From Candidatus Hydrothermales bacterium (GTDB lineage Bacteria; Hydrothermota; Hydrothermia; Hydrothermales; JAJRUZ01), in contig JBCNVI010000007.1 of assembly GCA_039630235.1 (NCBI GenBank), forward strand, positions 20,365 through 84,364: 64,000 nt of DNA, written 5' to 3'. Of the stretch, positions 5,676-62,839 are shown piece by piece. Under the pieces are notes generated by a model, which worked only from the letters and a program-made list of their open reading frames with translations, did no database searches and was not told the origin of the DNA. A program made the translations under genes and the position numbers. Positions within the stretch are counted from its first letter, which is position 1. The number at the start of each line of letters is the position of its first letter.

Positions 5676-5692
5676 AGGGGGTTCAAATCCCT
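5676..5692 (+). other. tRNA T-arm-like element AGGGGGTTCAAATCCCT, 19 nt upstream of the ATG of the BNR-repeat gene
   Basis: Contains the exact T-stem-loop consensus GGTTCAAATCC (identical to the tRNA-Glu T-arm in this window). No flanking cloverleaf. Confidence 0.3.
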
Positions 5693-5711
5693 AAAAAAAA
5701 GGAGGTTTTAA

Positions 5712-7433
5712 ATGAGTTATAATAAAAAGGGGGTGCTTAGTTTACTCTTTGTAGGATTCCTCCTTGCAGGAACAATAAGGCCTACTGTTATGGAACATGT
5801 TATAATTGATCGTGAGGACTTGAAAAATACCTCAGATATTTATCCTTCAGCTCCTCCAGTTTATACAACGATACCAATTAGTTATATAGATACGATGCCT
5901 AATCAGTACTCAACTTTATATACAGCTCCAAAACCAATAAATACATCACCTGATCAATCTTGTGTCTTTTTTACTTATAGAAGATTGTCTGATAACCCAG
6001 CTTATCCAGGAACTGGTCGTTTAGCTCTTGTTTTTTCAAAGGATGGTGGTGCTACTTGGACAAGAATATGGCCATACAACATTGATGGAGCCGGCAGATA
6101 TCCTAACGTAGGTCCCTGGATGGGTAATAGCGATACCTTTATTCTTACATACTCAACAGTGAGAACTCCATTTGAAGGTGCAATCTCTACTGTTCCATCT
6201 GATGGTTCTCTACCTCAAGGAAATATACTAACTTACTTCATTACAACACCTGGATTTGTCGGTTACAGGAGTTTTGGAAACGCTTCAAACGATATGGGAA
6301 ATTATGTTAATTTCCTTGTAGGACAGGATAATAACTATTTCACTCATTGGTGGTGGAGACTTGGATTTGTTGATCCTGATCCACCTGCTCAAATTTTCCC
6401 TGCACATACCCCTGGTGTATGGCTAATGGATTATTGGGATGGAGCACTTGCAGCTCTTGTAGATCCTGAAACTGTTAAAGTTTCTTATGATGATGGCGCT
6501 ACTTGGACTAATATTCCCCTTTACTTTGCTATTCCAATAGATACCTTTAGATTCCAAGGAGTAGATTACATTGTTAATACTCTCTGGTATGTAAATTACT
6601 GGGATTTTGCCCTCTTTAATGCAACAACACCTATGGCTCTTTTAACAACTACATGTAGGTTTACAAATCCTATAGTTTTTGGAGCAGCCGATACTTTTGA
6701 GGCTGGAAATGGTGCGTATATTGTGACACCTACAGCTACTTATACAGTAATAGATCCTGACGAGTTAATCTTCTTTACAAATATTGAGCTTACAATAGAC
6801 CATGTCAGAAATATACTTTTTGTTACATATGTTGCGTATCATACAATTGACCATGTTCCTAATAGGAGGTATGGATGGACTGATATTTATGTAAAATATT
6901 CAACTGATGGAGGAGCTACTTGGTCTGCACCTATTAATATCACTAGAGATGTAAGTAATCAACCAACCGATGATAAGATTGAGCATAAAGTTCATACAAT
7001 AAAACATGTAACTGCTCCTGGTAACTATAATTTATGGCTTTTATTTAATGTGCCAAGAGGATGGGATGGTACTAATGCTGGACTAGATCTTCATTATAAT
7101 GTTTATATAGTTGGTGGTACGGTTCCCACTTATATTTTAACAGGTTATGTTCCTGTGCTTAAGATTTTTGAGAAATCTATGGATAATTTTGCTTCAAGAA
7201 AGCTCACCCTTAATGGAAATGTATTTAACGGAACTATAAAGTTTGTATCCCCTGTGAACGGTAAGATGGCTTTCGATATTTTCGATCTCTCTGGAAGAAG
7301 AATTACATCTAAGACCATCTACGTTAAAGAGGGAAGCAATGAGATAAAGGTGGAAAGCCTCAAATCTGGAATATACTTCCTGAGATATAACGGAGATACA
7401 AAAGGTAATCTGAAACTTGTTGTTACTGAATAA
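5712..7433 (+). CDS. BNR/Asp-box repeat protein (sialidase/glycosidase-like beta-propeller) with a T9SS-type C-terminal sorting domain
   Basis: RBS GGAGG at 5701-5705. Signal peptide present. Three Asp-box repeats S-x-D-x-G-x-T-W (SKDGGATWTRI, SYDDGATWTNI, STDGGATWSAP). C-terminus ..SGIYFLRYNGDTKGNLKLVVTE is CTD-like. Confidence 0.7.
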   Translation: MSYNKKGVLSLLFVGFLLAGTIRPTVMEHVIIDREDLKNTSDIYPSAPPVYTTIPISYIDTMPNQYSTLYTAPKPINTSPDQSCVFFTYRRLSDNPAYPGTGRLALVFSKDGGATWTRIWPYNIDGAGRYPNVGPWMGNSDTFILTYSTVRTPFEGAISTVPSDGSLPQGNILTYFITTPGFVGYRSFGNASNDMGNYVNFLVGQDNNYFTHWWWRLGFVDPDPPAQIFPAHTPGVWLMDYWDGALAALVDPETVKVSYDDGATWTNIPLYFAIPIDTFRFQGVDYIVNTLWYVNYWDFALFNATTPMALLTTTCRFTNPIVFGAADTFEAGNGAYIVTPTATYTVIDPDELIFFTNIELTIDHVRNILFVTYVAYHTIDHVPNRRYGWTDIYVKYSTDGGATWSAPINITRDVSNQPTDDKIEHKVHTIKHVTAPGNYNLWLLFNVPRGWDGTNAGLDLHYNVYIVGGTVPTYILTGYVPVLKIFEKSMDNFASRKLTLNGNVFNGTIKFVSPVNGKMAFDIFDLSGRRITSKTIYVKEGSNEIKVESLKSGIYFLRYNGDTKGNLKLVVTE

Positions 7434-7471
7434 GGGGTAAAAGCGGTTCTGGTATATATAAAAGGGAAGGG

Positions 7472-7502
7472 CCCCTCCCAAAAATGGGAGGGGTCTTTTT
7501 TT
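7472..7502 (+). terminator. Rho-independent terminator downstream of the BNR-repeat gene
   Basis: Perfect 8-bp stem CCCCTCCC/GGGAGGGG with loop AAAAAT, followed by TCTTTTTTT. Confidence 0.65.
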
Positions 7503-7511
7503 AGATAATAT

Positions 7512-9140: not shown

Positions 9141-9172
9141 TAAGTTAACTTTCTTTTTCTTAAAATAAAAAA

Positions 9173-10368: not shown

Positions 10369-10884
10369 TTACGGATTTGAACCCTTTAAATTATAAATTA
10401 TGTCCTCTGGAAATTTAAATAGGTATTTATTTTTATCTTTTACTATTTTCTCAAAGATTTTTTTCCCACACTCAGTTTTTTCATTAAACATAAAATGAAA
10501 TGAAAATTTATTTATGAAATGAAATTTTTTTAGATAATTCATAATTTTTATAAGGGAAAAAATTTGGTTTTTTTCGATATCTTCGTTTTCAAAGTTGCCA
10601 ATTAAGGCAATTCCTATGAAATTATTAAACCTCTTTGTATGTGCCCCTTCCTCATTAATCTTTCTACCTTCAAATATGGTTCCATCAGGAGCAATTACAA
10701 AATGATAACCAATTAACGTAAATCCTCTTTCTCTATGTATCCTATCTAAATAGTTAATATCTCCCTTATATTCGCTTTTTGCTGTCGCCGTATGGTGTAG
10801 AATAATACAGGGCTTAATATTAACCTCCTTTATCCTCTCCGTAATACCTTTTTTCAACCATTCCTCTCTTTTTACGTAACTCAA
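10369..10884 (-). CDS. N-acetylmuramoyl-L-alanine amidase (Amidase_2/PGRP fold, AmpD-like, cytoplasmic)
   Basis: ILHHTAT.. and ..GYHFVI.. zinc-amidase motifs typical of Amidase_2. No signal peptide. Confidence 0.65.
   Translation of the reverse strand: MSYVKREEWLKKGITERIKEVNIKPCIILHHTATAKSEYKGDINYLDRIHRERGFTLIGYHFVIAPDGTIFEGRKINEEGAHTKRFNNFIGIALIGNFENEDIEKNQIFSLIKIMNYLKKFHFINKFSFHFMFNEKTECGKKIFEKIVKDKNKYLFKFPEDIIYNLKGSNP
10373..10388 (-). other. tRNA T-arm-like element (minus strand AAGGGTTCAAATCCGT) overlapping the last codons of the amidase gene, 26 nt upstream of the mdh ATG
   Basis: Exact 11-mer GGTTCAAATCC on the minus strand. Encodes the ..KGSNP* C-terminus of the amidase. Confidence 0.2.
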
Positions 10885-10887
10885 ATC

Positions 10888-16218: not shown

Positions 16219-16247
16219 TTGAATTTTTTCTTCTGCAGGATTATAAT
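16219..16247 (+). promoter_or_regulatory. Sigma70-type promoter of the rpsL (str/S10) ribosomal cluster (TTGAAT-17-TATAAT)
   Basis: TTGAAT at 16219-16224, 17-nt spacer, TATAAT at 16242-16247, ~55 nt upstream of the rpsL ATG. Divergent from the tRNA-Thr promoter. Confidence 0.5.
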
Positions 16248-16303
16248 TTATATTGTAAATTTTTGGTTCAATTCCAATTGAGAAGGGAAATTTTTTAGTA
16301 TTA

Positions 16304-19318: not shown

Positions 19319-19332
19319 AGGTTCGAATCCCC
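19319..19332 (+). other. tRNA T-arm-like element AGGTTCGAATCCCC, 19 nt upstream of the tuf ATG
   Basis: Canonical GGTTCGAATCC T-arm sequence in the fusA-tuf spacer. No flanking cloverleaf. No SD sequence between it and the ATG. Confidence 0.3.
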
Positions 19333-19351: not shown

Positions 19352-20566
19352 ATGAGTAAGCCTAAATTTGAGAGAAAGAAGGTACATGTTAATGTTGGTA
19401 CAATAGGTCATATTGACCATGGTAAAACTACTTTAACTTCTGCTATCACAAAGGTGCTATCTAAGTATGGTCTTGCCGTAGAGCAGGAGTATGAGCAAGT
19501 AGCAAAGGCTGATGTTAAGCTCTTTAGGAGGGATGAAACTAAGATTTTGACTGTTAACCTTGCCCATGTTGAGTATGAATCAGAAAAAAGACACTATGCT
19601 CACATTGATTGTCCAGGTCATCATGACTACATAAAGAACATGATAACAGGTGCTGCTCAAATGGACGGTGCAATTTTGGTAGTTTCAGCCGTTGATTCAG
19701 TGATGCCCCAAACAAGGGAACATGTTCTTTTGGCAAGACAAGTGAATGTACCGTATATAATTGTATTCATCAATAAAGTAGACGCAATAGATGACCCTGC
19801 AATAGTGGATCTTGTTGAAGAAGAGGTTAGAGATCTTCTGAAAAAATACGAGTTTCCTGGAGACGCAGTTCCAGTTATAAGAGGAAGTGCTTTAAATGCA
19901 ATGAGATGTGGCTGTGGCAAAAGGGAATGTGAACATTGTGGTAAGATCTGGGAGCTAATAGATGCAATGGATAATTATATTCCGGATCCTATAAGAGAGA
20001 TAGATAAACCCTTCCTGATGGCTATAGAAGATGTTTTTTCAATTACGGGTAGAGGAACAGTTGTAACAGGAAGAGTCGAAAGAGGAATTTTAAGACCCGG
20101 AGATGAGGTAGAAATTGTTGGGTTTGGTCCGACTAGAAAGACTGTAGCTACATCTTTGGAAATGTTTAGAAAAGTTCTTGATGAGGCAAGGGCTGGAGAT
20201 AACGTTGGAGTTCTCTTAAGAGGAATTGGTAAAGATGAGGTAGAAAGAGGAATGGTACTTGCAAAGCCTAATACTATAAATCCTCATACCAGATTTAGGG
20301 CTCAAGTATATGTTCTCACAAAGGAGGAGGGAGGAAGGCACACCCCATTCTTTTCTGGTTATAAACCTCAATTTTACTTCAGGACAACAGATGTAACCGG
20401 TTCAATTAAATTGCCCGAAGGTGTAGAAATGGTAATGCCTGGAGATCATGTTAACCTTGAGGTAGAACTAATGTATCCTGTGGCTATGGAAAAAGAGCTT
20501 AGGTTTGCTATAAGAGAGGGTGGAAAAACAGTTGGTGCAGGAATTATAACTGAAATAATAGAGTAG
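19352..20566 (+). CDS. tuf: Elongation factor Tu (with a Cys4 insertion in the domain-I loop)
   Basis: [41 protein letters not shown]. Thermophile-type loop ..[14 protein letters not shown] preceded by [13 protein letters not shown]. Confidence 0.95.
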
Positions 20567-20571
20567 AAAAT

Positions 20572-20895
20572 ATGCCAATAACAGAAAAGATAAGGATAAA
20601 GTTGAAAAGTTACGATGCAAGACTTATTGAAAAATCGGCAAAAAGAATAGCTTTAACAGCTCGTGGAACAGGAGCTGATGTAAGGGGCCCTATTCCATTA
20701 CCAACGAAAAAAACATTAATAAGCGTAATAAGAAGTCCTTTTGTTCATAAAACTTCAAGAGAACAGTTTTTTTATTGTGTTCATAAGAGATTAATAGAGA
20801 TAATAAATCCGACCCAAGAGACAGTTGAAAAGCTCTCAAAGCTTGATCTTCCAGCAGGTGTCGATGTGAAGATTGAAGTGAGTGTGGAAAGATGA
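20572..20895 (+). CDS. rpsJ: 30S ribosomal protein S10
   Basis: IRIKLKSYDARLIEKSAKRIA..RGPIPLPTKK..SPFVHKTSREQFE-like: canonical S10. Confidence 0.95.
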   Translation: MPITEKIRIKLKSYDARLIEKSAKRIALTARGTGADVRGPIPLPTKKTLISVIRSPFVHKTSREQFFYCVHKRLIEIINPTQETVEKLSKLDLPAGVDVKIEVSVER

Positions 20896-21539
20896 AAGCA
20901 CTCCTGGCAAAAAAGATTGGCATGACAAGAATACCCTTTGAAGAAAGTATTGTTCCCTGTACACTACTACATGTAGATAATGTATATGTAATGGGAATAA
21001 GAACTAAAGAAAAAGACGGTTATTCGGCAGTAAAGCTCTGTATTGGAAGAAAAAAGGCAAAAAAGATGAAAAGGCCCCTTTTAGGGGAGTTTAAAAAGGT
21101 TTTTGGAGATAGAGAAGAGTATCCTGCTGAGTTAATTAAAGAAGTAAGGGGGGAATTTGATCCGCAAATTTATAGCGTTGGAGCAGAACTTTCACCTTCA
21201 ATTTTTGAGCCTGGAGAGGTTGTAGATGTTATTGGGTATACAAAGGGAAGAGGTTTTGCTGGGGTTGTTAAAAGATGGGATTTTGCTGGAGGACCCGCTT
21301 CCCACGGTTCAATGTCTCATAGAAGACCTGGTTCAATAGGTCAAACAACAGATCCGGGAAGAGTTTGGAAAGGAAAAAGGATGGCTGGACACTATGGAAA
21401 TGAAAGAGAGGCCGTTCATAACCTGAAAGTTGTATACGTTGATGTGGATAATAAGATTATAGGTCTAAAAGGATCTGTTCCTGGTCCAAATGGGTCGGTT
21501 GTAATTATAAGGAGTCCTAAAAGGGTAAAAAAGAAATGA
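20892..21539 (+). CDS. rplC: 50S ribosomal protein L3
   Basis: MKALLAKKIGMTRIP..GYTKGRGFAGVVKRW.. L3 signature. 4-nt overlap with rpsJ. Confidence 0.95.
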   Translation: MKALLAKKIGMTRIPFEESIVPCTLLHVDNVYVMGIRTKEKDGYSAVKLCIGRKKAKKMKRPLLGEFKKVFGDREEYPAELIKEVRGEFDPQIYSVGAELSPSIFEPGEVVDVIGYTKGRGFAGVVKRWDFAGGPASHGSMSHRRPGSIGQTTDPGRVWKGKRMAGHYGNEREAVHNLKVVYVDVDNKIIGLKGSVPGPNGSVVIIRSPKRVKKK

Positions 21540-22183
21540 AAGCTAAAGTCTTTGATATAACAGGAAAAGAAGTTGGCGAAAGAGAATTGCCCCACTATAT
21601 TTTTGATCTGAAACCTAACATACATTTACTTTGGCTAGTGACAAAATATTACTTATCAAGATGGAGAGTGGGGTCGGCAAATACAAAAACAAGGGGAGAG
21701 GTAAGAGGTGGTGGAAGAAAACCCTGGCCTCAAAAACATACTGGTTGGGCAAGACACGGATCTATTAGATCTCCAATATGGAGAAAGGGGGGAGTTGTTT
21801 TCGGCCCAAAACCAAGAGATTTTTCAATAAGTGTTCCCTATAAGGCCAGGCTAAAAGCTCTATATATAGCATTAAGCGATAGAGCAAGAGATAAAAGGAT
21901 CAAGGTGTTAACAGGTCTAAATGATTTAGCGCTAAAAACAAAAGAGGGGGAGAGGGTTATAAGTAATCTCGGTTTAAATGATACAAAGGTTATTCTTCTA
22001 TTCGCAGACAATGAAAGAAAGCACTTTTTAGCCTTTAGAAATATTGAAAAGGTCACCTGTAAAAGAGCTATAGATGTTAATGCCTACGATATTTTAAATT
22101 CTAAATTTGTAGTTTTTTCGGATGAGGGCCTTAGTGAGTTTTTGAAAGTAAGGGGAGGGTTAAAAAGTGAAGAGTCCCTATGA
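21536..22183 (+). CDS. rplD: 50S ribosomal protein L4
   Basis: Position and size (215 aa). KPWPQKHTGWARHGSIRSPIWRKGGVVFGPKPR L4 signature. Confidence 0.93.
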   Translation: MKAKVFDITGKEVGERELPHYIFDLKPNIHLLWLVTKYYLSRWRVGSANTKTRGEVRGGGRKPWPQKHTGWARHGSIRSPIWRKGGVVFGPKPRDFSISVPYKARLKALYIALSDRARDKRIKVLTGLNDLALKTKEGERVISNLGLNDTKVILLFADNERKHFLAFRNIEKVTCKRAIDVNAYDILNSKFVVFSDEGLSEFLKVRGGLKSEESL

Positions 22184-22460
22184 TATTATAATTTCGCCCA
22201 TTATTACTGAGAAGGGAACCTTTTTAAGGGGGAGGTCAAATTACTACGTATTTAAAGTTAGAAAAGACGCCAATAAAAAGGAGATAAAGTGGGCAATTGA
22301 AAATCTTTACAAGGTAAAAGTTGAAAAGGTCAGAACTGTTAATGTTAAGCCAAAGCCAAAAAGGTTAAGACATAGACTATACGGCAGAACGTCTGCTTGG
22401 AAAAAGGCATATGTTAAATTAAAAGAGGGGGAAACAATACCTTTATATGAAGGAGTTTAA
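22167..22460 (+). CDS. rplW: 50S ribosomal protein L23
   Basis: YDIIISPIITEKGT..YVFKVRKDANKKEIKWAIENLYKVKVEKVRTVN: L23. Confidence 0.93.
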   Translation: MKSPYDIIISPIITEKGTFLRGRSNYYVFKVRKDANKKEIKWAIENLYKVKVEKVRTVNVKPKPKRLRHRLYGRTSAWKKAYVKLKEGETIPLYEGV

Positions 22461-22472
22461 AAAGGAGATAAC

Positions 22473-23294
22473 ATGGGTATAAAAAGATATAAGCCCTATA
22501 CGCCATCAAGAAGGTTTATGACAGGATATACCTTTGAAGAGATTACAAAGACAGAACCTGAGAAAAGCTTAGTTGTACCGCTAAAAAAGAAGGCTGGTAG
22601 AAACAACCAAGGTAGGATAACTATAAGGTTTAGGGGCGGGGGTCACAAAAGACTATATAGGATCATTGATTTTAAAAGAGATAAGTTTGGTATACCTGCA
22701 GAGGTTTTAAGTATTGAGTACGATCCAAACAGAACAGCAAGAATAGCCCTTTTGTGTTATAAAGATGGCGAAAAAAGATATATACTTGCTCCAGAGGGTT
22801 TAAAGGTAGGTGATGAGGTTGTTTCTGGTCCTGGCTCTCCCTTAAAAGTTGGAAATGCCTTACCACTTTCAGAAATCCCTGAAGGAATGGAAATTCATAA
22901 TATAGAACTTGTTCCTGGTAGAGGTGGTAAATTAGTAAAAGCTGCAGGATCTGCTGCTGTTATTTTGGCAAAAGAGGGAAATTATGCTCATGTTCAGCTT
23001 CCATCGGGTGAAATAAGACTTATAAACCAGAAGTGCTTGGCAACCTTAGGAAGAGTTTCAAATGTTGACCACGAGAACATAGTTATAGGAAAGGCAGGAA
23101 GAAAAAGATGGATGGGTAGAAGGCCTCATGTAAGAGGTACAGCAATGAACCCATGTGATCATCCTCATGGGGGTGGAGAAGGGAGAACAAAAGGTAAAAT
23201 TCCTAAAACTCCATGGGGGAAAATAACAAAGGGTAAAAAAACAAGAAATCCCAGAAAAGTTTCAAGTAGATTTATAATTAAAAGGAGAAAATAA
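22473..23294 (+). CDS. rplB: 50S ribosomal protein L2
   Basis: [15 protein letters not shown]2 signature. 273 aa. Confidence 0.95.
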
Positions 23295-23297
23295 ACT

Positions 23298-23597
23298 ATG
23301 GCAAGGTCAAGTAAAAAAGGAGTTTATGTAGATCTTAAGCTTTTAAAAAAAGTTTTAAAGGCAAAACAAAGTGGAGACACAACGCCCATAAAGACTTATT
23401 CACGAAGGAGCACCATTATCCCTGAAATGGTGGGACTAACGATACAGGTACACAACGGTAGAAAGTTTATTCCGGTTTATATAACAGAGCTTATGGTAGG
23501 GCATAAGCTTGGTGAGTTTTCACCAACAAGAACCTTTAGAGGACACAAGAGTAAAAGAGAAAAGGAAGCAGCAAAAGAAACAAAAAAAGAGGGGTAA
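23298..23597 (+). CDS. rpsS: 30S ribosomal protein S19 (with a Lys/Glu-rich C-terminal tail)
   Basis: [49 protein letters not shown]: S19. Confidence 0.95.
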
Positions 23598-23598
23598 A

Positions 23599-23952
23599 AT
23601 GGTTGAGGGAGTTGCAAGGATAAAGTATTTAAGAACTTCTTTTAAAAAGTCTAAGAGAGTTTGTGAGGCAATAAGAGGTAAAACTGTAAAAGAAGCCTTA
23701 GATATTTTATATTTCCTTACGAAAAAACCTGCTAAATTGTTATATAAGGCTGTAAAATCTGCATGTAATTCTTATGCTGTAAAAAAGGGAATTAAGTTTG
23801 ATGAAGTTGATTTAAAAAATTTAAGGGTTAAGATTTGTAAAGTAGATAAGGGTCCAACTTGGAGAATTTTAAGACCTGGATTTAGAGGGGTACCGCGTAT
23901 TGCAAGAAGACACACAGCTCATTTTACAGTTGTGGTAGAGGAGGTAAAGTAA
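23599..23952 (+). CDS. rplV: 50S ribosomal protein L22
   Basis: MVEGVARIKYLRTSFKKSKRVCEAIRGKTVKEALDIL.. L22. The track ORF start at 23509 overlaps rpsS out of frame; true start is ATG 23599, 2 nt after the rpsS stop. Confidence 0.92.
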   Translation: MVEGVARIKYLRTSFKKSKRVCEAIRGKTVKEALDILYFLTKKPAKLLYKAVKSACNSYAVKKGIKFDEVDLKNLRVKICKVDKGPTWRILRPGFRGVPRIARRHTAHFTVVVEEVK

Positions 23953-23953
23953 T

Positions 23954-24610
23954 ATGGGACAAAAAGTTCATCCTTATGGTTTTAGACTCGGTATACATAA
24001 GGATTGGAAGGCTCATTGGTTTGCTGATAGGAAGTCTGAATATGTAAAGTATTTCGAGGAAGATAATAAAATTAGATCTTATCTGAGGGAAAGATATAAA
24101 GATGCAAGGGTATCTGATATTGTTATTGATAGAGCTGGAGAGCAGATAACTGTGACGATTCATACTGCTTCTCCTGGTATGGTTATAGGTCAAAAGGGGA
24201 AAGAAATAGAACTTGTTAAAAAAGAACTTTCTACGTTTATAAAAAATGAGAACATTACTATACATGTTCAAGAGATAAGAGTTCCAGAACTTGATGCTCA
24301 GCTTGTTGCTGATGGTATTGCAAGAAGGATAGAACAGCAGGTATCTCATAGGAGGGCAATGAAAAGAGCAGTTTCCCAAGCTCTAAGGATGGGAGCAAAG
24401 GGTATAAAAGTTCAATGCAAGGGAAGACTTCAAGGAGCTGAGCTTGCAAGGAAAGAAGGGTATATGCAAGGTAGAGTTCCTTTACAGACTATAAGGGCAG
24501 ATATTGATTACGGTTTTTCGACTGCCTTTACAAGGTATGGAACAATAGGAGTTAAGGTTTGGATATATAAAGGTGATATTCTTGAAAAACCAGAAATCGA
24601 GGAGGTCTAA
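23954..24610 (+). CDS. rpsC: 30S ribosomal protein S3
   Basis: [30 protein letters not shown].. KH-domain plus S3 C-terminal domain. Confidence 0.95.
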
Positions 24611-24612
24611 AT

Positions 24613-25032
24613 ATGCTTCAGCCAAAAAGAATGAAATATAGAAAACAACATAGGGGAAGAAGGAAAGGAAAAGCTATTGATGGGTGTTATCTTGCTTTTG
24701 GTGAGTATGGTTTAAAGGCACTTGAGTCAGCCTGGATTAAGGCAAATCAGATAGAGGCTTGCAGGTTAGCTATTGGAAGATATTTAAAAAAGGGTGGTAA
24801 GTTATGGATAAGGATTTTCCCTGATAAACCTGTTACTAAAAAGCCTGCAGAAACGAGAATGGGAAAGGGTAAGGGAAATGTTGATCATTATGTGGCTGTT
24901 GTTAAAAGAGGTAGAATTCTTTTTGAACTTGCTGGTGTTTCAGAAGATGTTGCAAGGAGAGCTCTTGAGTTAGCCTCTCACAAGTTACCAATAAAAACAA
25001 GATTTGTGACTCAAAAGGAGGGAGGATGGTGA
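24613..25032 (+). CDS. rplP: 50S ribosomal protein L16
   Basis: [44 protein letters not shown]: L16. Confidence 0.95.
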
Positions 25033-25226
25033 AGGCATCTGAACTAAGAGAACTTGATCAGGATGAACTTTTAAGAATTCTAAAAGAATTAAATGAAAAA
25101 TTATTTGAGCTAAGAACTAAGAAAGTTTTAGGTAGTCTTGAGAAACCTACTGATATTAGAAAAGTTAAGAGGGATATTGCGAGAGTCAAAACAGTTCTAA
25201 GAGAAAAATTTGGAAAGAATTATTAG
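25026..25226 (+). CDS. rpmC: 50S ribosomal protein L29
   Basis: [30 protein letters not shown].. L29. The ribosomal cluster ends here; rpsQ/rplN etc. are absent downstream. Confidence 0.93.
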
Positions 25227-25241
25227 AAATTATTTATAAAT

Positions 25242-26946: not shown

Positions 26947-27347
26947 ACAATTTTTTAATTTTTGTTTTTAATCTATCTTTTATACTCCCAGTATCAAAAA
27001 TTTTTTTTCCAGACCTACCCATTGATATATCTTTGATTTTTATGTTTCTTATAGTTGTAAATAATCTAAAACCCTTAAGTTTTTTGTATCTCTTTATTTT
27101 TGGAATTTTCTACGATTATTTTTCAAAGGTTCCTATCACTTTCTTTTTGATAGTAACTTTCATGGTTTATTATTACCTTAAGAATAAACTTAACTTTTCA
27201 CTTTTTGTTTTGAAGATTTTTAGGAATGCCTTTATATTTATCCCTCTCACTCTTGTAAAGGGTTTTTCTTTCTTTTTTCTAACTTTTGTTTTTTTCTCTT
27301 TGATTGAAATTATACCATGGAGGAGAATTTTGGAATTAAAATTTTAA
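26943..27347 (+). CDS. mreD: Rod shape-determining protein MreD-like polytopic membrane protein
   Basis: ATGA overlap with the mreC stop. Very hydrophobic 134-aa protein in canonical mreD position. The track ORF start at 26895 is internal to mreC. Confidence 0.6.
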   Translation: MNNFLIFVFNLSFILPVSKIFFPDLPIDISLIFMFLIVVNNLKPLSFLYLFIFGIFYDYFSKVPITFFLIVTFMVYYYLKNKLNFSLFVLKIFRNAFIFIPLTLVKGFSFFFLTFVFFSLIEIIPWRRILELKF

Positions 27348-31740: not shown

Positions 31741-31860
<120 letters not shown>

Positions 31861-44959: not shown

Positions 44960-46882
44960 TTATTCAGAAACACTAATAACCTTAAATTCTACCCTCCTAT
45001 TCATCGCTCTTCCTTCTCGGGTCAAATTATCCGCTATGGGCATAGTTTCACCATACCCCTTTGCAATAAGTTTCGATGGATCAATATTATGGAAATTAAT
45101 TAGGTAATTCCTTACTGCTTCTGCTCTTGCCTGAGAGAGTGTGAGATTATAACTATCTGAACCCACAGAGTCTGTATGACCCTGAATTTCTATTACAGCG
45201 TTTGGATTTGCCTTTAAAAATTCAGCAACTCTATCAAGAATTGGATAAGACTCAGGTTTTATAGTAGCTTTTCCTGTGTCAAAGTAAATATTTTGTAACC
45301 TTATTGTAACCCCTTTTTGAGCTTTCTTTTTTAACTTTATGTTCTTTTCAACTAAGGGTTCACCTTCTTTAAGAACCACAGGTATACTTTCCGAAATGTA
45401 ACCTTCTGCCTCAATTTTCAAAATATATGTTCCTGGTGGTAATTTTAATTTAAATGAACCAGTTTCAGGATCGCTTAGAGTCCCCTCAAATCCTGTCTCT
45501 GGAATTGAAACTTTCGCTATGATAGGCTCTTCTGTTACGTTATCTACTATCTTTCCTGTAAGTAGTATCAATTCTTTTTTCTTTAGAGGAAAATCTATAA
45601 CCAGTTCAGCACCCTCCTTTAAGACAAAACTCTTTCTCATCCATGCATAACCTTCCTTTTCAACATAGAAACTATAGGTACCAGGTTCAAGCTCTACTGA
45701 ATAAAAGCCATTCATGTCTGAGGAAATAGGGGGCTTATCTGTACCTTCTATCAAAATTTGAGCCATAAGGGGTTCACCACTTATTGCATCATATATTTTG
45801 CCACTAACTTTTGCAATTTTAGGTGCAGGCGGAGGAGGGGGTGGTGGAGAAGCTGGTGGAGGAGGTGGTGGAGTAACTGTAACTTTCTTAGGTAAAAGAT
45901 TGTAAACGTTTGACATTAGAAAAATAAATCTCCAATCTGGTATATAAGTAAATAAGTTTCTATCATGTGAATAGATAAAAATTAACGAGTCAGCTATATT
46001 CCTTATCTTTGCATCTACAGCAAAATCAAAGATAACTCCACCTGGGGTTTTAAATCTTACTCCAGGAGTTAAAGCTAAGAGATTCGTTCTTAACTCAATA
46101 AAGTATACTCCGTGAAAGTCTAATATAAAGTCAACATAGGGACCTGCAGATAAAGTTAGATTAACTCCAAAGGGTAGCCTTGTAAAATCTTTGAATTCAT
46201 CTTTATTTTTAAAAACCGTGTCTCTGCGAGGAACACCACTTTCATCGAAATTATACCACAAAATCGGGAAGATATTTTCTTTTGCAGGTCTTCCGGTTTG
46301 GTGAAATCCTATCATACCATTTAAGCTCAATATTTGAAGTTTGACTCCTAAAAGTAGATGTGACCAAAATTGGCCGCTTTGAGGTATATACATAGGAAAA
46401 CCATAGGCTACAAATTTTGGATCCTTTCTTTCAATACCAAGATTAGGAAGATAATATCCAAAGGAAATTCCTCCAGAAAGTTCTATGCCAGTTAATGTAT
46501 CTGAGAAAAAACTATGTCCAAGTTTTGTAAGAATATCTAAGCCTCTGTATGCGAAATAACCATCATCATCTCTTTGTCGTGGAATATCAGCCCTTTCTAA
46601 CATTCTACCTTCAAAATCAGTTCTAAATCCAAACTCTAAGAAGTTAAAGGGAGTATAAGAAAATAAAATTGAGGAAAGCAGATAATGTCTTCTATCGTTG
46701 AGAGGGTTATTAACAGAATCAACTGTGTTATCCCAATATCTAAAATCTTGGAAGGAGTATCCACCGTAGAGAGAAAAAGAAAAGTCTCCCTGTTGGTGTG
46801 TTTTCGGATGAATAACTCTAAATGATCCACTTAAGCCATTTATTGATGGAACTGAAATTACAATTAACAGAAATAAGTTCAT
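44960..46882 (-). CDS. OmpA-family outer-membrane protein: N-terminal beta-barrel, poly-Pro linker, two carboxypeptidase-regulatory-like domains, C-terminal OmpA peptidoglycan-binding domain
   Basis: Signal peptide. PPPPPPASPPPPPPPAP linker. C-terminal ..IEIQGHTDSVGSDSYNLTLSQARAEAVRNYL..AKGYGETMPIADN..GRAMNRRVEF OmpA_C signature. Confidence 0.8.
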   Translation of the reverse strand: MNLFLLIVISVPSINGLSGSFRVIHPKTHQQGDFSFSLYGGYSFQDFRYWDNTVDSVNNPLNDRRHYLLSSILFSYTPFNFLEFGFRTDFEGRMLERADIPRQRDDDGYFAYRGLDILTKLGHSFFSDTLTGIELSGGISFGYYLPNLGIERKDPKFVAYGFPMYIPQSGQFWSHLLLGVKLQILSLNGMIGFHQTGRPAKENIFPILWYNFDESGVPRRDTVFKNKDEFKDFTRLPFGVNLTLSAGPYVDFILDFHGVYFIELRTNLLALTPGVRFKTPGGVIFDFAVDAKIRNIADSLIFIYSHDRNLFTYIPDWRFIFLMSNVYNLLPKKVTVTPPPPPPASPPPPPPPAPKIAKVSGKIYDAISGEPLMAQILIEGTDKPPISSDMNGFYSVELEPGTYSFYVEKEGYAWMRKSFVLKEGAELVIDFPLKKKELILLTGKIVDNVTEEPIIAKVSIPETGFEGTLSDPETGSFKLKLPPGTYILKIEAEGYISESIPVVLKEGEPLVEKNIKLKKKAQKGVTIRLQNIYFDTGKATIKPESYPILDRVAEFLKANPNAVIEIQGHTDSVGSDSYNLTLSQARAEAVRNYLINFHNIDPSKLIAKGYGETMPIADNLTREGRAMNRRVEFKVISVSE

Positions 46883-46903
46883 TTTCTTTTAAATTAATTT
46901 TAA

Positions 46904-46978
46904 TGGCCCCAGGGGGATTTGAACCCCCGTCTCCACCTTGAAAGAGTGATGTCCTGGGCCTGGCTAGACGATGGGGCC
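46904..46978 (-). tRNA. tRNA-Glu (anticodon UUC)
   Basis: Reverse complement: acceptor GGCCCCA/TGGGGCC. Anticodon arm TCACT-CTTTCAA-GGTGG (UUC). T-arm GGGGG TTCAAAT CCCCC. Discriminator A. Confidence 0.8.
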
Positions 46979-47028
46979 ATTAAAATATAATAGAATAATT
47001 TTAACACACGTTTCTTAAAAAATTCAAA

Positions 47029-47541
47029 TTAAATAGACCTACCCTTTGCTGCAATATAAAGTTTTCTAAATTGTTCATTATCAATTATAGCCTGATTTAT
47101 TAAAAAGTACGTTTCAAGGTTCTTATTAGTCTCTCTTATTCTCTCTGCAAGTTCAATAGCTAGATTTTTCAAAACTAAAACTCCTATTTTTGGATCTCTT
47201 TCAACGATTTTCCAGAAGTCTTCCCTTTTTAATACATATAGCGATGATTCCTTAACAGCTATGCAAGTAGCACTTCTGGGCACATCAGAAATAAGGGAAA
47301 GTTCCCCAAAAAAAGAGCCATTTTCAAGCTCAGCGAGAACAAGAACAAGATCACCTCTTTTTAACCTCACTTCAACTTTACCCTTTTCTATAATATAAAG
47401 AGTATCACCAGGGGAGCCCTCTTCAAAAATTGTTTCACCTTTTTCATAATTTCTTGGTTCAAGATTTTCTAAAATCTTAGAGAGTTGGTCTTCTTTTAGA
47501 CCCTTAAAAAGCAACACGTTTTTAAGGATATTAATCATCAA
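47029..47541 (-). CDS. Stand-alone cyclic-nucleotide-binding (cNMP/CAP-effector) domain protein, no DNA-binding domain
   Basis: ..GETIFEEGSPGDTLYIIEKGKVEV..FGELSLI.. cNMP-binding beta-roll signature. 170 aa. Lies between tRNA-Val and tRNA-Glu on the same strand. Confidence 0.7.
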   Translation of the reverse strand: MMINILKNVLLFKGLKEDQLSKILENLEPRNYEKGETIFEEGSPGDTLYIIEKGKVEVRLKRGDLVLVLAELENGSFFGELSLISDVPRSATCIAVKESSLYVLKREDFWKIVERDPKIGVLVLKNLAIELAERIRETNKNLETYFLINQAIIDNEQFRKLYIAAKGRSI

Positions 47542-47553
47542 ATAGTTTTAAAG

Positions 47554-47629
47554 TGGGCGATGGAGGATTCGAACCTCCGACCTTCACGTTGTCAACGTGA
47601 TGCTCTCACCAACGCTGAGCTAATCGCCC
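47554..47629 (-). tRNA. tRNA-Val (anticodon GAC)
   Basis: Reverse complement: acceptor GGGCGAT/ATCGCCC. Anticodon arm TCACG-TTGACAA-CGTGA (GAC). T-arm GGAGG TTCGAAT CCTCC. Discriminator A. Confidence 0.85.
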
Positions 47630-47655
47630 ACTTATTTATTATAACTAAAAAAATT

Positions 47656-47910
47656 TTAAACTTCAAGAAGTTTACTAATCCTTGATTTTATTCTTGCTCC
47701 CTTGTTTTCGTGTATAACACCTCTTTTTACAGCCTTATCAACTATACTCTGTAACTCCTTAAACAGAAGTTTCTTTTCCTCTGTATTGCTTGCCTTTCTT
47801 ATTTTTTTAATTACATTTTTAATCTTTAACTTGTATATCCTATTTCTTATTCTCCTTTTTTCGTTCTGTCTTTCCCTTTTTAAAACTGATAGAGACTTTT
47901 TTCTTGCCAT
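47656..47910 (-). CDS. rpsT: 30S ribosomal protein S20
   Basis: MARKKSLSVLKRERQNEKRRIRNR.. and C-terminal ..KAVKRGVIHENKGARIKSRISKL: S20. Confidence 0.9.
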   Translation of the reverse strand: MARKKSLSVLKRERQNEKRRIRNRIYKLKIKNVIKKIRKASNTEEKKLLFKELQSIVDKAVKRGVIHENKGARIKSRISKLLEV

Positions 47911-47992
47911 TTAATTCTCTTTAGTTTATATTTTTTAGGAGTAGAACCCTACTTGGATTTAATTATACCAAATTTAAACCTTAAAATAAAAA

Positions 47993-48865
47993 ATGCAGTT
48001 AATATTTTTTATAATTTCATTTCAGCTTGTAATTTATGGAAATGAGAGGTGGGGCTTTTCTAGAAACGCTAGAATAGCTTCACTAGGAGAGGCCTCTTCA
48101 TCCATTATAGATCCTGGATCTTTTTTATTTAATCCAGCTACATCCTCCCTTTTTCAAAATAAAGTAATACAGGCTACTTTTTCAAATTACTTTTCAGGTT
48201 TTTTCAAATTTGGCACATTTAATTTCATAGCAGGTGACTCAATAAGAAAATTCTTTACTTCTCTTAATTATATTTTTTCTGATAATATATATTACACAAT
48301 TTATGAAGACACTGTTGAAGCATCTAATATAGATGAAATCGTAAAAAAGGGAGTAATTAAAATAAATTCCATCCAAATTTTAGGTGGTTTTTCAAATAAG
48401 TTAAAGAATTTTAATTTTGGTCTTTTACTTAAATTTATGAGAGAGAATTTATATGTAGGAAAGGGTTACGGTATTGGCATGGATGTTGGTTTTTTATTTT
48501 CAGATGAATTCAACTTTTCCTTTTCTCTTAGAAATTTTTTGGGGAGTATAAACCTATGGGACTCAGGAAGAAAAGAATATATTCCAACTTCCCTAAGAGT
48601 TGGATTTTCAAAAAACTTTTTAGAAAGAATTCTTTTCTCTTTTGACACAGAATCTTATTTTGAAAGTAGGTTTAGGATTTCATATTACGCTGGACTTGAA
48701 GCAAAAATTTTAAAGAGTTACTTTATAAGAGCGGGTTGGAGAGAAAATATTCCGACAATAGGTTTTGGTTTTAGGATAAAAAATTTAGATATAGATTATG
48801 CTATAGGAGGTAATTTTGAACTATCAGCCTTTCATATAGTTTCCCTATCTTGCATTCTGAGGTGA
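47993..48865 (+). CDS. Second PorV/PorQ-like outer-membrane beta-barrel family member
   Basis: N-terminal signal-like segment. ARIASLGEASSSIIDPGSFLFNPAT resembles the PorV/PorQ A..G.A....S..FNPA motif of the gene at 331..1320. Alternating beta-strand pattern to an aromatic-rich C-terminus. Confidence 0.4.
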   Translation: MQLIFFIISFQLVIYGNERWGFSRNARIASLGEASSSIIDPGSFLFNPATSSLFQNKVIQATFSNYFSGFFKFGTFNFIAGDSIRKFFTSLNYIFSDNIYYTIYEDTVEASNIDEIVKKGVIKINSIQILGGFSNKLKNFNFGLLLKFMRENLYVGKGYGIGMDVGFLFSDEFNFSFSLRNFLGSINLWDSGRKEYIPTSLRVGFSKNFLERILFSFDTESYFESRFRISYYAGLEAKILKSYFIRAGWRENIPTIGFGFRIKNLDIDYAIGGNFELSAFHIVSLSCILR

Positions 48866-49425: not shown

Positions 49426-49441
49426 TTTAAAATTATAACAA

Positions 49442-49455
49442 GAGGTTCAATCCCT
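49442..49455 (+). other. tRNA T-arm-like element GAGGTTCAATCCCT, 21 nt upstream of the ATG of the SurA-like gene
   Basis: Same motif class as the elements at 5676 and 19319. Confidence 0.25.
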
Positions 49456-59370: not shown

Positions 59371-59399
59371 TTTTACCTCCTTGATTTATTTTAAAAAGT

Positions 59400-60553: not shown

Positions 60554-62312
60554 TACCCTTTACTTTAGAAATTTCATCAACACTTGCGCCCTTTAATCTT
60601 TCAATTGATCCAAAGTATTTAAGAATTTCGATCTTTTTTTTCTCACCTATTCCTGGAATTCCGTCAAGTTCAGAAATTCTAATTTTTTTTACCATTTTAT
60701 CTCTGTGATAAGTTAGCGCAAATCTATGAGCTTCATTTCTTATACTTCTTAAAAGTTTAATTGCATCAGATTTTTTGGGAATCATGACTAATTTATTATC
60801 GGGAAAATAAAGTTGATCAAAGGTTTTAGCGAAGGCGCAAACTTTAACGTCAGTTATATTAAGCTCATTTAATGCTTTCAGGGCGGCAGAAAGTTGTGCC
60901 TTTCCTCCATCAACTATAAAAAGATCCGGAAACTTTTCATTCTCCTCTTTTAACCTCTTAAATCTTCTCTTAACAACTTCATAAACCATATGTGGATCTG
61001 ACTTTATATCCTCTGTCTTTATTTTAAACTTTCTATAAAGCTTTTTTTCTTTTTTACCATTTTTAAATACAACGATAGCAGCAACCCTTTCATCACCAAA
61101 TGAATGCGATACATCTAAACATTCAATATGTAACGGATAAAAAGTTAAATTTAAATTTTCTTTAAGTTCAACAACTGATTTTGATATGATTGTTTTACCC
61201 TTTTTCTCACTGTAGTATTCTTCTAATTTATACTCAGCATTCTCCTTTGCCATCTTAATAAGTTTTTCCTCTTTTTCATCTTTTGGCTCCCTAAAGCTTA
61301 TATTAATATTTCTTTTAATCTTAAGAGCTCCCTCTATTTCATAGTAATCTTCTCTTAATTTTTCAACTATAACCTCCTCAGATCCAATAATTCCAGAGAG
61401 GTAATATTGAGAGATGAAAGAAAAAAGTATATCCTTTTCATCAGAAGAGATAGGATTGTCAAGGATAAAGCTTTCCATGTCAATTAATTTTCCATTTCTT
61501 ACGCGTAATATACAGACTGAGGCGTATGGATAGTATGAGCAAGCTGCAAGGACATCTATAGATTTTCTTTCGTCTAGTACAGCACTTTGACTTCTTGATA
61601 TTTCTCTTATCGAATATAAAATATCTTTCAATCTTGCAGCTTTTTCAAACTCTAAATTTTCTTTAAGCTTTTCGATTTCGTCTAAAAGATAATCTTCTAC
61701 ACTTTTTGTATTTCCGGTAAAGAAAAAAACTAATTTTTTTACGATTTCCCTATATTCTTCAGGGTTTACAAGACCACTAACGCAGGGACCTAAACATCTT
61801 TTTAAGTCATAATCAAGGCAGGGGTTTATTTTTCTTTTTGATGGTAGGGTGTATTTGCACGTTCTAATTGGGAAGATCTTTAGGGCAACTCTTAACGCCT
61901 TTCTTAGAGATTTAGCTGAGTGAAAGGGTCCTATAAGAAGTGAACCATCATCTCTAAGATCTCGTGTTGTAAAAATTCTTGGAAAAATTTCATTTACAGT
62001 TATTTTAATATAGGGATATTTTTTATCATCTCTTAATCTTATATTAAATTTAGGTTTTTTACTTTTTATCAGGTTATTTTCTAAAAGGAGAGCTTCAGGT
62101 TCGGAGGCGGTTGTTATAAATTGGAACGTGTGTATCTTATTTAGCATAAGTCTTAATCTTGGGTTTTCATATTCCATAGTCATGTGGGTTTTTATTCTTT
62201 CTCTTAAATTTCTCGCTTTACCTACGTATAGTAAATTCCCCTTTTTATCGAAAAAAAGGTAGACTCCAGGTTTTTCTGGGATATTATTTAGATTTTCTTT
62301 TCTAAACTCCAT
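60507..62312 (-). CDS. uvrC: Excinuclease ABC subunit C
   Basis: N-terminal GIY-YIG GVYLFFDKKGNLLYVGKARNLRERI. UvrBC-interaction region. RNaseH-like endonuclease domain. C-terminal (HhH)2 ..IPGIGEKKKIEIL..VKGIGKKLAEII. Confidence 0.85.
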   Translation of the reverse strand: MEFRKENLNNIPEKPGVYLFFDKKGNLLYVGKARNLRERIKTHMTMEYENPRLRLMLNKIHTFQFITTASEPEALLLENNLIKSKKPKFNIRLRDDKKYPYIKITVNEIFPRIFTTRDLRDDGSLLIGPFHSAKSLRKALRVALKIFPIRTCKYTLPSKRKINPCLDYDLKRCLGPCVSGLVNPEEYREIVKKLVFFFTGNTKSVEDYLLDEIEKLKENLEFEKAARLKDILYSIREISRSQSAVLDERKSIDVLAACSYYPYASVCILRVRNGKLIDMESFILDNPISSDEKDILFSFISQYYLSGIIGSEEVIVEKLREDYYEIEGALKIKRNINISFREPKDEKEEKLIKMAKENAEYKLEEYYSEKKGKTIISKSVVELKENLNLTFYPLHIECLDVSHSFGDERVAAIVVFKNGKKEKKLYRKFKIKTEDIKSDPHMVYEVVKRRFKRLKEENEKFPDLFIVDGGKAQLSAALKALNELNITDVKVCAFAKTFDQLYFPDNKLVMIPKKSDAIKLLRSIRNEAHRFALTYHRDKMVKKIRISELDGIPGIGEKKKIEILKYFGSIERLKGASVDEISKVKGIGKKLAEIIYERLHS

Positions 62313-62359
62313 AGGTTAAATTTTATCAGTCTAAGTGTTTATTTTCAAATTATGAGATT

Positions 62360-62806
62360 CTATTCTTCTCCCTTAAGTTTTCTTCTTTTTTCTTTTCTAT
62401 ATTCTTTCAAAATTTTTCTTATTTCCTTAAATTTTTCACTTCCCAATTTTTCATAGACTTTTTTAAAACTTCTAATTTGCTTTAATCTTAGTTCTTCATT
62501 GAGGTTTGATATTTCTTTTATGATTTTTTCAATTTTATCAAAGTCAATTTTTTCAGAGTTTATTATTTCTTGTATCTCAATTTCTTTGATTTTTATATTT
62601 GATTTAATTTTTTCGGTTTCTTTTTCTAGTTCAAAATAAGCAGATTTCAAGAATTCTACTTCTTCTTTTGAAAGATTTGCTTCTTTTTGGATATCTTCGT
62701 TAAGAGCTATAGATCTTAAAATTATTTCAGGGCTTTTTTTTATTAAAAATCTACGAACAGCTTCTTCATGGAATAAAAGAATTAAAGGTATTATTAAGGC
62801 ACTCAT
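62360..62806 (-). CDS. Hypothetical K/E-rich coiled-coil protein (possibly Spy/CpxP-like periplasmic)
   Basis: 148 aa. Hydrophobic N-terminus, heptad-like charged repeats. No catalytic motif. Confidence 0.4.
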   Translation of the reverse strand: MSALIIPLILLFHEEAVRRFLIKKSPEIILRSIALNEDIQKEANLSKEEVEFLKSAYFELEKETEKIKSNIKIKEIEIQEIINSEKIDFDKIEKIIKEISNLNEELRLKQIRSFKKVYEKLGSEKFKEIRKILKEYRKEKRRKLKGEE

Positions 62807-62825
62807 AGCGCTAATTTAATCTGAT

Positions 62826-62839
62826 AGGGTTTGAACCCT
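62826..62839 (-). other. tRNA T-arm-like palindromic element (minus strand AGGGTTCAAACCCT), 19 nt upstream of the start of the 62360..62806 gene
   Basis: Plus strand AGGGTTTGAACCCT. Same spacing to the start codon as the plus-strand copies. Confidence 0.25.

Follow-up and report, generated by a model that had tools for sequence, protein, structure and literature searches.

The 64,000-nt stretch of DNA analyzed here, referred to as the window, derives from a Candidatus Hydrothermales bacterium (contig JBCNVI010000007.1, positions 20,365–84,364), is AT-rich (~33% G+C), and contains multiple copies of a short motif that reproduces the T arm of tRNA just upstream of unrelated protein-coding genes. 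The pattern GGTTCRANYCC matched the window ten times compared to 0.26 matches expected, and none of 100 shuffled sequences reached ten. The more stringent GGTTCRAAYCC matched six times with an expectation of 0.00 in the shuffles. Four of the ten matches are the T arms of tRNA genes and six are orphans outside tRNA genes. A one-mismatch scan together with a covariance model, R1, disclosed two further copies with one mismatch each, which raised the orphan total to eight. The downstream genes encode a BNR protein with a type IX secretion system (T9SS) sorting domain, malate dehydrogenase (mdh), ribosomal proteins S12 (rpsL) and S20 (rpsT), EF-Tu (tuf), a SurA-like peptidyl-prolyl isomerase (PPIase), and two proteins of unknown function. 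All eight copies lie on the sense strand of the gene that follows and end 20–28 nt before its start codon, as measured from the end of the 11-nt core. No orphan copy was found elsewhere in the window, in either coding or non-coding sequence. The element can be expressed as the pattern GGTTCNANNCC or as model R1. When scored with R1, which was run with filters off and whose training set included these same copies, the eight sites reached 20–26 bits and the next window matches reached no more than 16.5 bits.

The BNR/T9SS copy spans 5676–5692 on the plus strand (AGGGGGTTCAAATCCCT; 25 bits), with the core ending 21 nt before the ATG at 5712 and an AGGAGG Shine-Dalgarno (SD) sequence in between. 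The mdh copy occupies 10371–10386 on the minus strand (AAGGGTTCAAATCCGT; 26.1 bits), overlaps the last codons of the upstream amidase open reading frame (ORF), and has its core end 28 nt before the ATG at 10344. The rpsL copy at 16263–16277 on the plus strand (TTGGTTCAATTCCAA; 21.5 bits) possesses a 4-bp stem and is also 28 nt from its ATG, at 16304. In the fusA-tuf spacer, the copy at 19319–19332 on the plus strand (AGGTTCGAATCCCC; 21.7 bits) ends 21 nt before the tuf ATG at 19352 with no SD sequence. The copy preceding the gene for a secreted DUF4384 protein, at 36235–36251 on the minus strand (AGGGGTTTAAATCCCCT; 21.6 bits), has a 5-bp stem and a C56-to-U change, is located within the 3′ end of the upstream ORF, and has its core end 25 nt short of the ATG at 36212; the gene does have an SD sequence. 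The rpsT copy at 47936–47950 on the minus strand (AGGGTTCTACTCCTA; 20 bits) carries U at position 57 in place of a purine and ends 27 nt before the ATG at 47910. The PPIase copy at 49442–49455 on the plus strand (GAGGTTCAATCCCT; 21 bits) ends 22 nt before the ATG at 49477. The last copy, near-palindromic and situated at 62826–62839 on the minus strand (AGGGTTCAAACCCT; 20.7 bits), ends 20 nt before the ATG at 62806 of a gene for a 148-aa protein with no Pfam match.

Five of these copies had been described in an earlier note on the same DNA. All five exist and four are at exactly the coordinates reported. The mdh copy had been placed at 10373–10388 instead of 10371–10386 on the minus strand, although the distance of 26 nt to the ATG that was given for it is right for the true position. 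The note's own distances of 19, 19, 19, 21, and 26 nt were correct, and a count verified that the 11-mer GGTTCAAATCC occurs twice outside tRNA genes and once in tRNA-Glu. The idea of a fixed 19-nt spacing did not hold, as the distances occupy a preferred range of 20–35 nt when relatives are included. Three copies were absent from the earlier list, those before rpsL (core 16265–16275, plus strand; GGTTCAATTCC), rpsT (core 47938–47948, minus strand; GGTTCTACTCC), and the DUF4384 gene (core 36238–36248, minus strand; GGTTTAAATCC). The contention that the sites are not tRNA genes was borne out: ARAGORN identified four tRNAs in the window (Thr, Leu, Glu, and Val), none of them at an orphan site, no Rfam 15 family overlapped any site at either the gathering threshold or E ≤ 5, and the two tools together call only the four true tRNAs.

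EF-Tu assigns the window to WOR-3/Candidatus Hydrothermales, and an NCBI MAG protein matches it at 100%. Conservation of the motif was followed in relatives whose EF-Tu identity to the window protein ranges from 95% down to 88%. The str-operon region was covered in six relatives (L001, L002, L089/090, L091/092, L093, and L096) and the rpsT-PPIase region in three (L099, L100, and L101), amounting to ~0.3 Mb of clade sequence. The motif preceded tuf in 7/7 genomes and rpsL in 7/7 genomes, comprising the window and the six relatives, with a change of R57 to U in the rpsL copy of L096. It preceded mdh in 5/5 genomes (window, L001, L089, L091, and L093), with a U55-to-C change in L093, and both rpsT and the PPIase gene in 4/4 genomes (window, L099, L100, and L101). 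The check on orthologous regions that the earlier note had suggested was positive for five genes. In the alignment of tuf leaders the motif was the sole conserved non-coding block and its surroundings could not be aligned. Additional copies in relatives were found before rpsG in L002, before a zinc-ribbon gene in L101, and, in degenerate form, before a TPR gene in L096. Core-to-start spacing in the relatives was 20–35 nt and differed among orthologs (rpsL, 21–30 nt; mdh, 27–35 nt; rpsT, 21–27 nt), but by no more than 9 nt for any one gene. The rpsL-rpsG spacer of L002 (6894–7315) is ~400 nt long compared to 3 nt in the window, and its own motif lies 22 nt before rpsG with no SD sequence. The mdh promoter and motif (10369–10395, minus strand) and the DUF4384 motif (36223–36251, minus strand) overlap the ends of upstream ORFs, and the motif is kept although the C-termini encoded by these ORFs differ between genomes.

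Beyond the clade the motif was not detected. Seventy-eight tuf loci from other phyla (~1.2 Mb) had no leader copy, and WOR-3 outgroups with 80–83% EF-Tu identity had no match that reached 16 bits in 85 kb. A metagenome scan with the Sua5/LMWPc alignment gave no leader motif among the seven loci listed. A scan of viral contigs for TATAAT-N4-16-GGTTCAAATCC gave 120 loci with no apparent leader copy; of the 121 matches, 28 fell within tRNAs and the others resembled coding-sequence or chance matches when judged by eye, without ORF calling. The cultured WOR-3 strain sy37 has a G+C content of 60.6%, appears to belong to another lineage, and is probably unsuitable as a direct model. As the motif is retained at orthologous sites and is missing in the outgroups, this distribution identifies it as a derived, selected feature of one clade. 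The element is almost certainly real and functional.

The variation among copies follows the grammar of a tRNA T loop. An alignment of 32 distinct sites from 11 gene families revealed that G52, G53, U54, A58, C61, and C62 (tRNA numbering) are invariant in all 32. U55 and C56 each change once. Position 57 is A or G except in three sites that have U, position 59 may be any base, and all but one of the 32 sites have a pyrimidine at position 60. The positions that are fixed in the motif are those that are fixed in the tRNAs of the window genome itself, and the T-loop consensus, a 7-nt U54-U55-C56-R57-A58-N59-Y60 loop closed by G53-C61, is observed across the sites. Thus, the suggestion in the earlier note of a T-arm mimic fits the pattern of variation.

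The stem is short. Pairs 52-62 and 53-61 are G-C throughout, and a pair at 51-63 is formed in 26 of the 32 sites (GC in 11, AU in 9, and CG, UA, and GU in 2 each), with six unpaired. The identity of this third pair switches within families, between A-U and U-A in rpsL, between G-C and A-U in mdh, and among G-U, U-A, and C-G in rpsT. None of 500 shuffles reached the observed 51-63 pairing or covariation score, and slid registers gave lower values. The full 5-bp T stem (49–53 with 61–65) is not a property of the orphan sites: pairs 50-64 and 49-65 are formed in just 12–13 of 25 sites and show no evidence of being selected, the exception being rpsL, whose copies have A/U stems of 5–8 bp (hairpins of 17–23 nt). 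As the outer pairs occur in approximately half of the sites, the unit delineated by the alignment is a stem of ~3 bp with a 7-nt T loop. RNAalifold applied to the tuf leaders recovered this hairpin alone.

Predicted promoter elements place the motif downstream of likely transcription start sites. A putative sigma-70-type promoter, TTGAAT-17-TATAAT, was recognized by inspection at 16219–16247 on the plus strand and ends 17 nt upstream of the rpsL motif; the form TTGAnT-17-TATAAT is conserved in all clade genomes, with the motif beginning 13–17 nt past the −10 box. A predicted TATAAT box for mdh (10390–10395, minus strand) is conserved in five genomes and is only 6–9 nt upstream of the motif, so that the mRNA would start at or just before the hairpin. 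A predicted extended −10 box for rpsT, TGGTATAAT (47962–47970, minus strand), is 13 nt upstream of the motif, with a gap of 12–20 nt across genomes. For the PPIase gene, the predicted TAAAAT box (49428–49433, plus strand) belongs to a block, TTTAAAATTA, conserved across four genomes, and is 10–12 nt from the motif. The corresponding gap for tuf is 14–40 nt. The mdh, rpsT, and tuf boxes (TATAAT or TGnTATAAT) all lie upstream of the motif at variable distances. If these boxes are promoters, the motif falls within the first ~0–20 nt of leaders of ~35–50 nt, and its location downstream of conserved −10 boxes indicates that it is probably transcribed as part of the mRNA leader. Overall, the gap between −10 box and motif varies ~10-fold (4–40 nt) whereas the distance to the start codon is held within 20–35 nt. 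A fixed distance from the promoter is ruled out by this range of gaps, and the earlier proposal of a 5′ untranslated region (UTR) element, sited between −10 boxes and start codons, is the best reading of the arrangement.

Certain copies depart from this layout. In the window, no −10 box was recognizable upstream of the motifs in the fusA-tuf spacer or before the DUF4384 gene, and these copies may therefore be internal to operons. The copy in the rpsL-rpsG insert of L002 has just a weak TAATAT box 6 nt upstream. An element acting at 3′ ends is ruled out by the copies before rpsL, rpsT, and the 148-aa gene, as none of these three follows a gene in the same orientation. Two other candidate functions were rejected. 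Most hairpins precede A-rich sequence and a few precede short T runs (in L089, L093, and L096 for rpsL, and in L002 for tuf), which does not correspond to an intrinsic terminator. Nor is the motif a −10-like sigma-dependent pause element, as the T that would match position −7 is not conserved (variants TTCAAAC, TTCAACC, and TTCAAGC). In two relatives a further hairpin of 5–8 bp lies directly 5′ of the tuf motif (L089, 9927–9960; L091, 9926–9960). It reads CTGTGGGG...CCCCACAG in L091, is a perfect 8-bp stem in that genome and 5 bp in L089, and holds an extended −10 box, TGnTATAAT, in its loop. The window, L099, L100, and L101 all retain a TTGCAT block (~47996–48001 on the minus strand of the window) that precedes the rpsT −10 box by ~25 nt, too far upstream for a normal −35 element.

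The leaders of tuf and rpsL also differ from those of the outgroups in their SD sequences. The outgroups have AAGGAGGTG or GGAGG before tuf and GGGGTG or GGAGGAG before rpsL, with no motif. The clade, in contrast, has the motif without a full SD sequence: tuf has none and some rpsL leaders retain a partial AAGGA or GAAGGGA. Comparison of the leaders therefore reveals a swap of SD sequence for motif that holds for tuf and rpsL and is not a general rule. Pairing of the whole motif with rRNA is unlikely as positions 59 and 60 vary freely.

The strict sense orientation, transcribed position, covarying pair, T-loop grammar, and weakness of the naked hairpin combine to suggest a single-stranded hairpin, most simply RNA, that is read by a T-loop recognizer. 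Action as a hairpin in RNA is judged likely. The reading that is favored, although tentatively and at a little short of an even chance, is one in which a minimal T-arm mimic, situated in 5′ leaders, brings in a T-loop reader and thereby tunes mRNA stability, translation initiation, or both. The element would be carried in short 5′ UTRs, 4–40 nt past sigma-70-type −10 boxes and 20–35 nt before the start codon. Its 7-nt UUCRANY loop would be presented on a short stem made up of G52-C62, G53-C61, and, in most cases, a third pair that covaries. The hairpin would dock a protein that normally reads the T loop of tRNA. Candidates are enzymes of the TruB (Ψ55), TrmA/TrmFO (m5U54), or TrmI (m1A58) class, or a derived binder, and the resulting ribonucleoprotein or modified hairpin would influence mRNA stability and/or initiation. 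The naked hairpin is expected to be too weak at growth temperature to act alone, which is why a protein docking site is envisaged. Transcription of the motif, action as RNA, the identity of the reader, and the direction of any change in expression are points that we infer.

Background knowledge is compatible with this scheme. TruB, TrmA/TrmFO, and TrmI need the T arm alone, and a site 20–35 nt upstream of the start codon is close to the usual upstream edge of a bound 30S subunit. The genes tuf, rpsL, rpsT, rpsG, and mdh, and those for envelope and secreted proteins, are typically highly expressed in bacteria. Short stems can also serve as substrates: for TRUB1 the minimum stem length is 2 bp, and 3–12 bp stem-loops are modified in vitro by TruB and Pus4 (PMC13492117).

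Several observations weigh against recruitment of a T-loop reader by an RNA hairpin. The stems are mostly 3 bp and nearest-neighbor folding shows no preference for the hairpin even at 37°C, with z-scores near 0. Folding of the leaders had been proposed as a check in the earlier note, and the energies obtained do not favor the hairpin, so that a stable self-folding RNA structure is unsupported. The relatives of this clade come from hot springs and the clade probably lives at ~70–75°C, a value that rests on assigning L001 to its probable source, a spring at 75°C, from the name DT_Bin_18 (PMC12297393). The alignment count of mismatches at pair 51-63 does not favor the sense strand (A/C in four sites versus G/U in two), and the hairpin could accordingly form equally well in either DNA strand. 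Evidence that the motif is transcribed comes from inspecting promoters in DNA that is AT-rich. In the window, SD strength does not differ between genes with and without the motif (medians of −6.45 and −6.05 kcal/mol, respectively), and those with it cover all strengths from weak to strong. As the values are equal, the motif is not a general SD replacement, and this role was rejected at the genome-wide level. We know of no bacterial precedent for a T-loop enzyme that controls mRNA expression. Furthermore, Escherichia coli TruB binds isolated stem-loops weakly, with a dissociation constant of >1 μM (PMC13492117).

A more ambitious form of the T-arm mimic proposal is doubtful. Here the mimic would be a general 5′-UTR signal, present on perhaps a third of transcription units and read by the T-loop modification or chaperone machinery (TruB, TrmA, TrmI, or a derived paralog). 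It would tie genes for translation, central metabolism, and the envelope to tRNA maturation and would partly replace the SD sequence on tuf and rpsL.

Among the alternatives, the one that survives best is an RNA processing signal similar to t-elements. The mimic would be recognized in the manner of the operon-punctuating tRNAs of this genome, and cleavage close by, through RNase Z, RNase P, or another endonuclease, would produce a leader of ~10–25 nt that may or may not include an SD sequence. The organization of true tRNA genes in the window lends this idea some appeal: all four are followed by a co-oriented ORF after 11–20 nt, their T-arm cores are 23–32 nt from the start codon in a range that matches the orphan copies, and the operon rpsT–tRNA-Val–ORF–tRNA-Glu–ompA is conserved. 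Moreover, the tRNA genes do not encode CCA, a trait that accompanies 3′ processing by RNase Z in other bacteria, and some orphan copies may be situated between co-transcribed genes. However, RNase Z and RNase P gauge a coaxial acceptor/T stack of ~12 bp and the orphans have stems of 2–5 bp. No acceptor-like pairing is conserved, nor is any pairing beyond 3 bp, and folds of the leaders show no extended helix. The RNase P/Z option raised in the earlier note thus lacks the acceptor-like stem that both enzymes need. Nucleases that read the backbone also leave the base-specific conservation of U54, U55, C56, and A58 unexplained, and close spacing between tRNA genes and ORFs is also present in outgroups that have no orphan motifs. 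A processing signal is therefore unlikely.

Distinctly unlikely is a DNA hairpin of the ops type, in which the non-template strand of the transcription bubble would, during early elongation, be bound by a NusG/RfaH-family or other factor that alters elongation or couples RNA polymerase to the ribosome. The ops element of RfaH is reportedly a short, oriented leader element with a minimal hairpin. The motif shares a position in transcribed leaders, strict orientation, a length of 11–13 nt, a stem of 2–3 bp, and a base-specific loop; several targets have no SD sequence; and covariation at pair 51-63 suits single-stranded DNA as well as RNA. Yet the motif is unrelated in sequence to ops (GGCGGTAGnnTG), and its agreement with the T-loop consensus, down to the free position 59 and pyrimidine 60, would be a coincidence. 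The 5–8 bp stems of rpsL (17–23 nt) exceed the segment of non-template DNA that is exposed, and the targets are housekeeping genes and not long, horizontally acquired operons.

The hairpin might instead dock directly with the ribosome, without a protein partner, by contacting a ribosomal site for tRNA elbows or by acting as a standby site itself, and thereby serve as an SD-independent translational enhancer. The constrained distance to the start codon (20–35 nt) relative to that from the −10 box (4–40 nt), the loss of the SD sequence from tuf and rpsL where the motif arose, and the A-rich tracts that follow the hairpin all suit this arrangement. Nevertheless, the known ribosomal contacts with the T loop (L1 stalk, L5, and H38) are on the 50S subunit and recognize the D/T elbow, which is absent here, and the hairpin is unstable by itself. 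Three of the eight window copies precede strong SD sequences (BNR, mdh, and DUF4384; −11 to −13 kcal/mol) and rpsL is intermediate (−9.3 kcal/mol). Protein-free docking is very unlikely.

A double-stranded operator bound by a global transcription factor just downstream of strong promoters, the DNA counterpart of the leader element in the earlier note, is highly improbable. Copies are ~0–25 nt from the predicted transcription start sites of several genes and that at 62826–62839 is nearly palindromic, but most copies are not palindromic and all 32 sites in the 11 gene families have a single orientation relative to the gene. Complementarity at 51-63 has been kept through changes on both sides, which is unnecessary for readout of a duplex. 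In addition, the gap to the −10 box varies, and for some copies, perhaps operon-internal, no −10 box is recognizable upstream.

Functionless relics of decayed tRNA genes, tRNA-linked repeats, att sites, or chance are effectively refuted by the orthologous conservation: although tRNA-Thr is directly upstream of tuf in other WOR-3 genomes (L008, L022, and L053), which makes a tRNA relic before tuf conceivable, and the BNR copy has 15 nt in common with the tRNA-Glu T arm, the motif occurs ten times as GGTTCRANYCC against a chance expectation of 0.26, precedes eight different genes, is the only non-coding block kept in tuf leaders whose flanks are saturated with changes, and occupies syntenic sites that have just the 11–15 nt T-arm core in common, with no acceptor-end sequence, direct repeats, integrase genes, or insertions. 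The earlier note had argued against random remnants, as retention at orthologous positions amid diverging flanks now shows, and its alternative of integration events is set aside as no att-type repeats or mobile DNA are involved.

Other features of the window were recorded. The tRNA-punctuated operon at 44960–47970 on the minus strand, also present in L099 and L100, consists of rpsT, tRNA-Val, a cNMP-binding ORF, tRNA-Glu, and a gene for an OmpA-family protein of 640 aa; the ORFs begin 11 and 20 nt past the tRNA 3′ ends without SD sequences. Elsewhere, Sua5/LMWPc begins 17 nt past tRNA-Thr, and a ferredoxin gene 16 nt past tRNA-Leu. A 5S rRNA gene (31742–31858, minus strand) stands alone between protein-coding genes with no adjoining 23S rRNA gene. 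The S10 operon (20566–30083 in the window, and in L089, L091, and L093) ends after rpmC (L29) and is directly succeeded by mreB-mreC-mreD-PBP2-rodA, whereas the outgroup L098 retains the usual S10-spc order. EF-Tu of the clade (19352–20566) is 404 aa in length with the stretch CEHCGKIW, which may be a Cys-containing insertion; for L093, one gene-calling program ran the ORF through the leader motif and gave a protein of 419 aa. Two large proteins (1333–4776 and 5712–7433) possess the C-terminal T9SS sorting domain Por_Secre_tail, as would fit a secretion system of the FCB type in this WOR-3 lineage. An intrinsic terminator, GGGCCCCTCCCAAAAATGGGAGGGGTCTTTTTTT, follows the BNR/T9SS gene at ~7455–7495 on the plus strand.

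If the element acts as RNA, it would be, to our knowledge, the first minimal T-arm mimic in bacteria to be shared as a leader signal by many unrelated genes of the kind that is typically highly expressed. For T-loop-reading enzymes, the function of which on eukaryotic mRNAs is still under debate, it would also offer a collection of natural mRNA targets that evolution has validated. The loss of SD sequences from tuf and rpsL where another upstream element arose bears on the replacement of initiation signals in the FCB superphylum. In practical terms, the motif is a cheap marker for the starts of transcription units in these uncultured genomes and a caution for scanners of tRNA genes and B boxes.

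A search of the literature for the motif or for a T-arm mimic in leaders found no description, but the element has affinities with a number of known systems. It is most obviously akin to the tRNA T arm itself, sharing G53, U54, U55, C56, R57, A58, Y60, C61, and the G52-C62 pair, and a similar distance to the start codon as local tRNAs (23–32 nt). It differs in having no acceptor, D, or anticodon arm and a stem that is usually 3 bp instead of 5 bp, and it is missed by ARAGORN and Rfam. The B box of RNA polymerase III promoters, GGTTCGANTCC, has the same DNA sequence solely because both copy the T arm, and the setting is different, as bacteria have neither TFIIIC nor Pol III.

The mRNA target motif of TRUB1/Pus4 is GUUCNANNC, presented in a stem-loop whose stem must be 2 bp or longer (PMC5340967, as quoted in PMC13492117). 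The eukaryotic mRNA sites and the leader element have the same core and a 7-nt loop, reside in mRNA, and suffice with short stems (PMC5340967; PMC13492117). The full GUUCNANNC motif is matched by 27 of the 32 sites, the other five have one loop mismatch each (U55, C56, or position 57), and all stems are at least 2 bp. In contrast to the TRUB1/Pus4 sites, the present motif is bacterial, is found in 5′ leaders 20–35 nt from the start codon, and is kept at orthologous sites; pseudouridylation here is hypothetical. TRUB1/Pus4 mRNA sites are scattered, mostly in coding and 3′ regions, and do not constitute a positional leader signal.

Among regulatory leaders, ops and other signals for NusG paralogs are likewise short, oriented elements with a minimal hairpin and a base-specific loop in SD-less leaders. 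Unlike the present motif, ops acts as non-template DNA on long accessory operons, and its sequence is unrelated, the GGCGGTAGnnTG consensus being absent from the orphan sites. Plant mitochondrial t-elements and tRNA punctuation also place tRNA-like modules beside ORFs where they could define mRNA ends, but t-elements keep the acceptor stem and T-arm mimic that RNase P and RNase Z require, which the orphan copies do not. The thrS operator, the T-box, and the tRNA-like yjdF aptamer (PMC9142559) exemplify leaders that borrow a piece of tRNA to recruit a tRNA-binding partner. Those elements exceed the present one in size, are specific to individual genes, and resemble either an anticodon arm or a tRNA as a whole (PMC9142559), whereas the orphan element is 13–17 nt in length, corresponds to the T arm alone, and is common to many unrelated genes. 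Thus, tRNA mimicry in leaders and T-arm-like Ψ sites in mRNAs are kinds of element that are already known; what is new is that genes of a bacterial clade have in common a bare T-arm module as a leader signal of constrained position.

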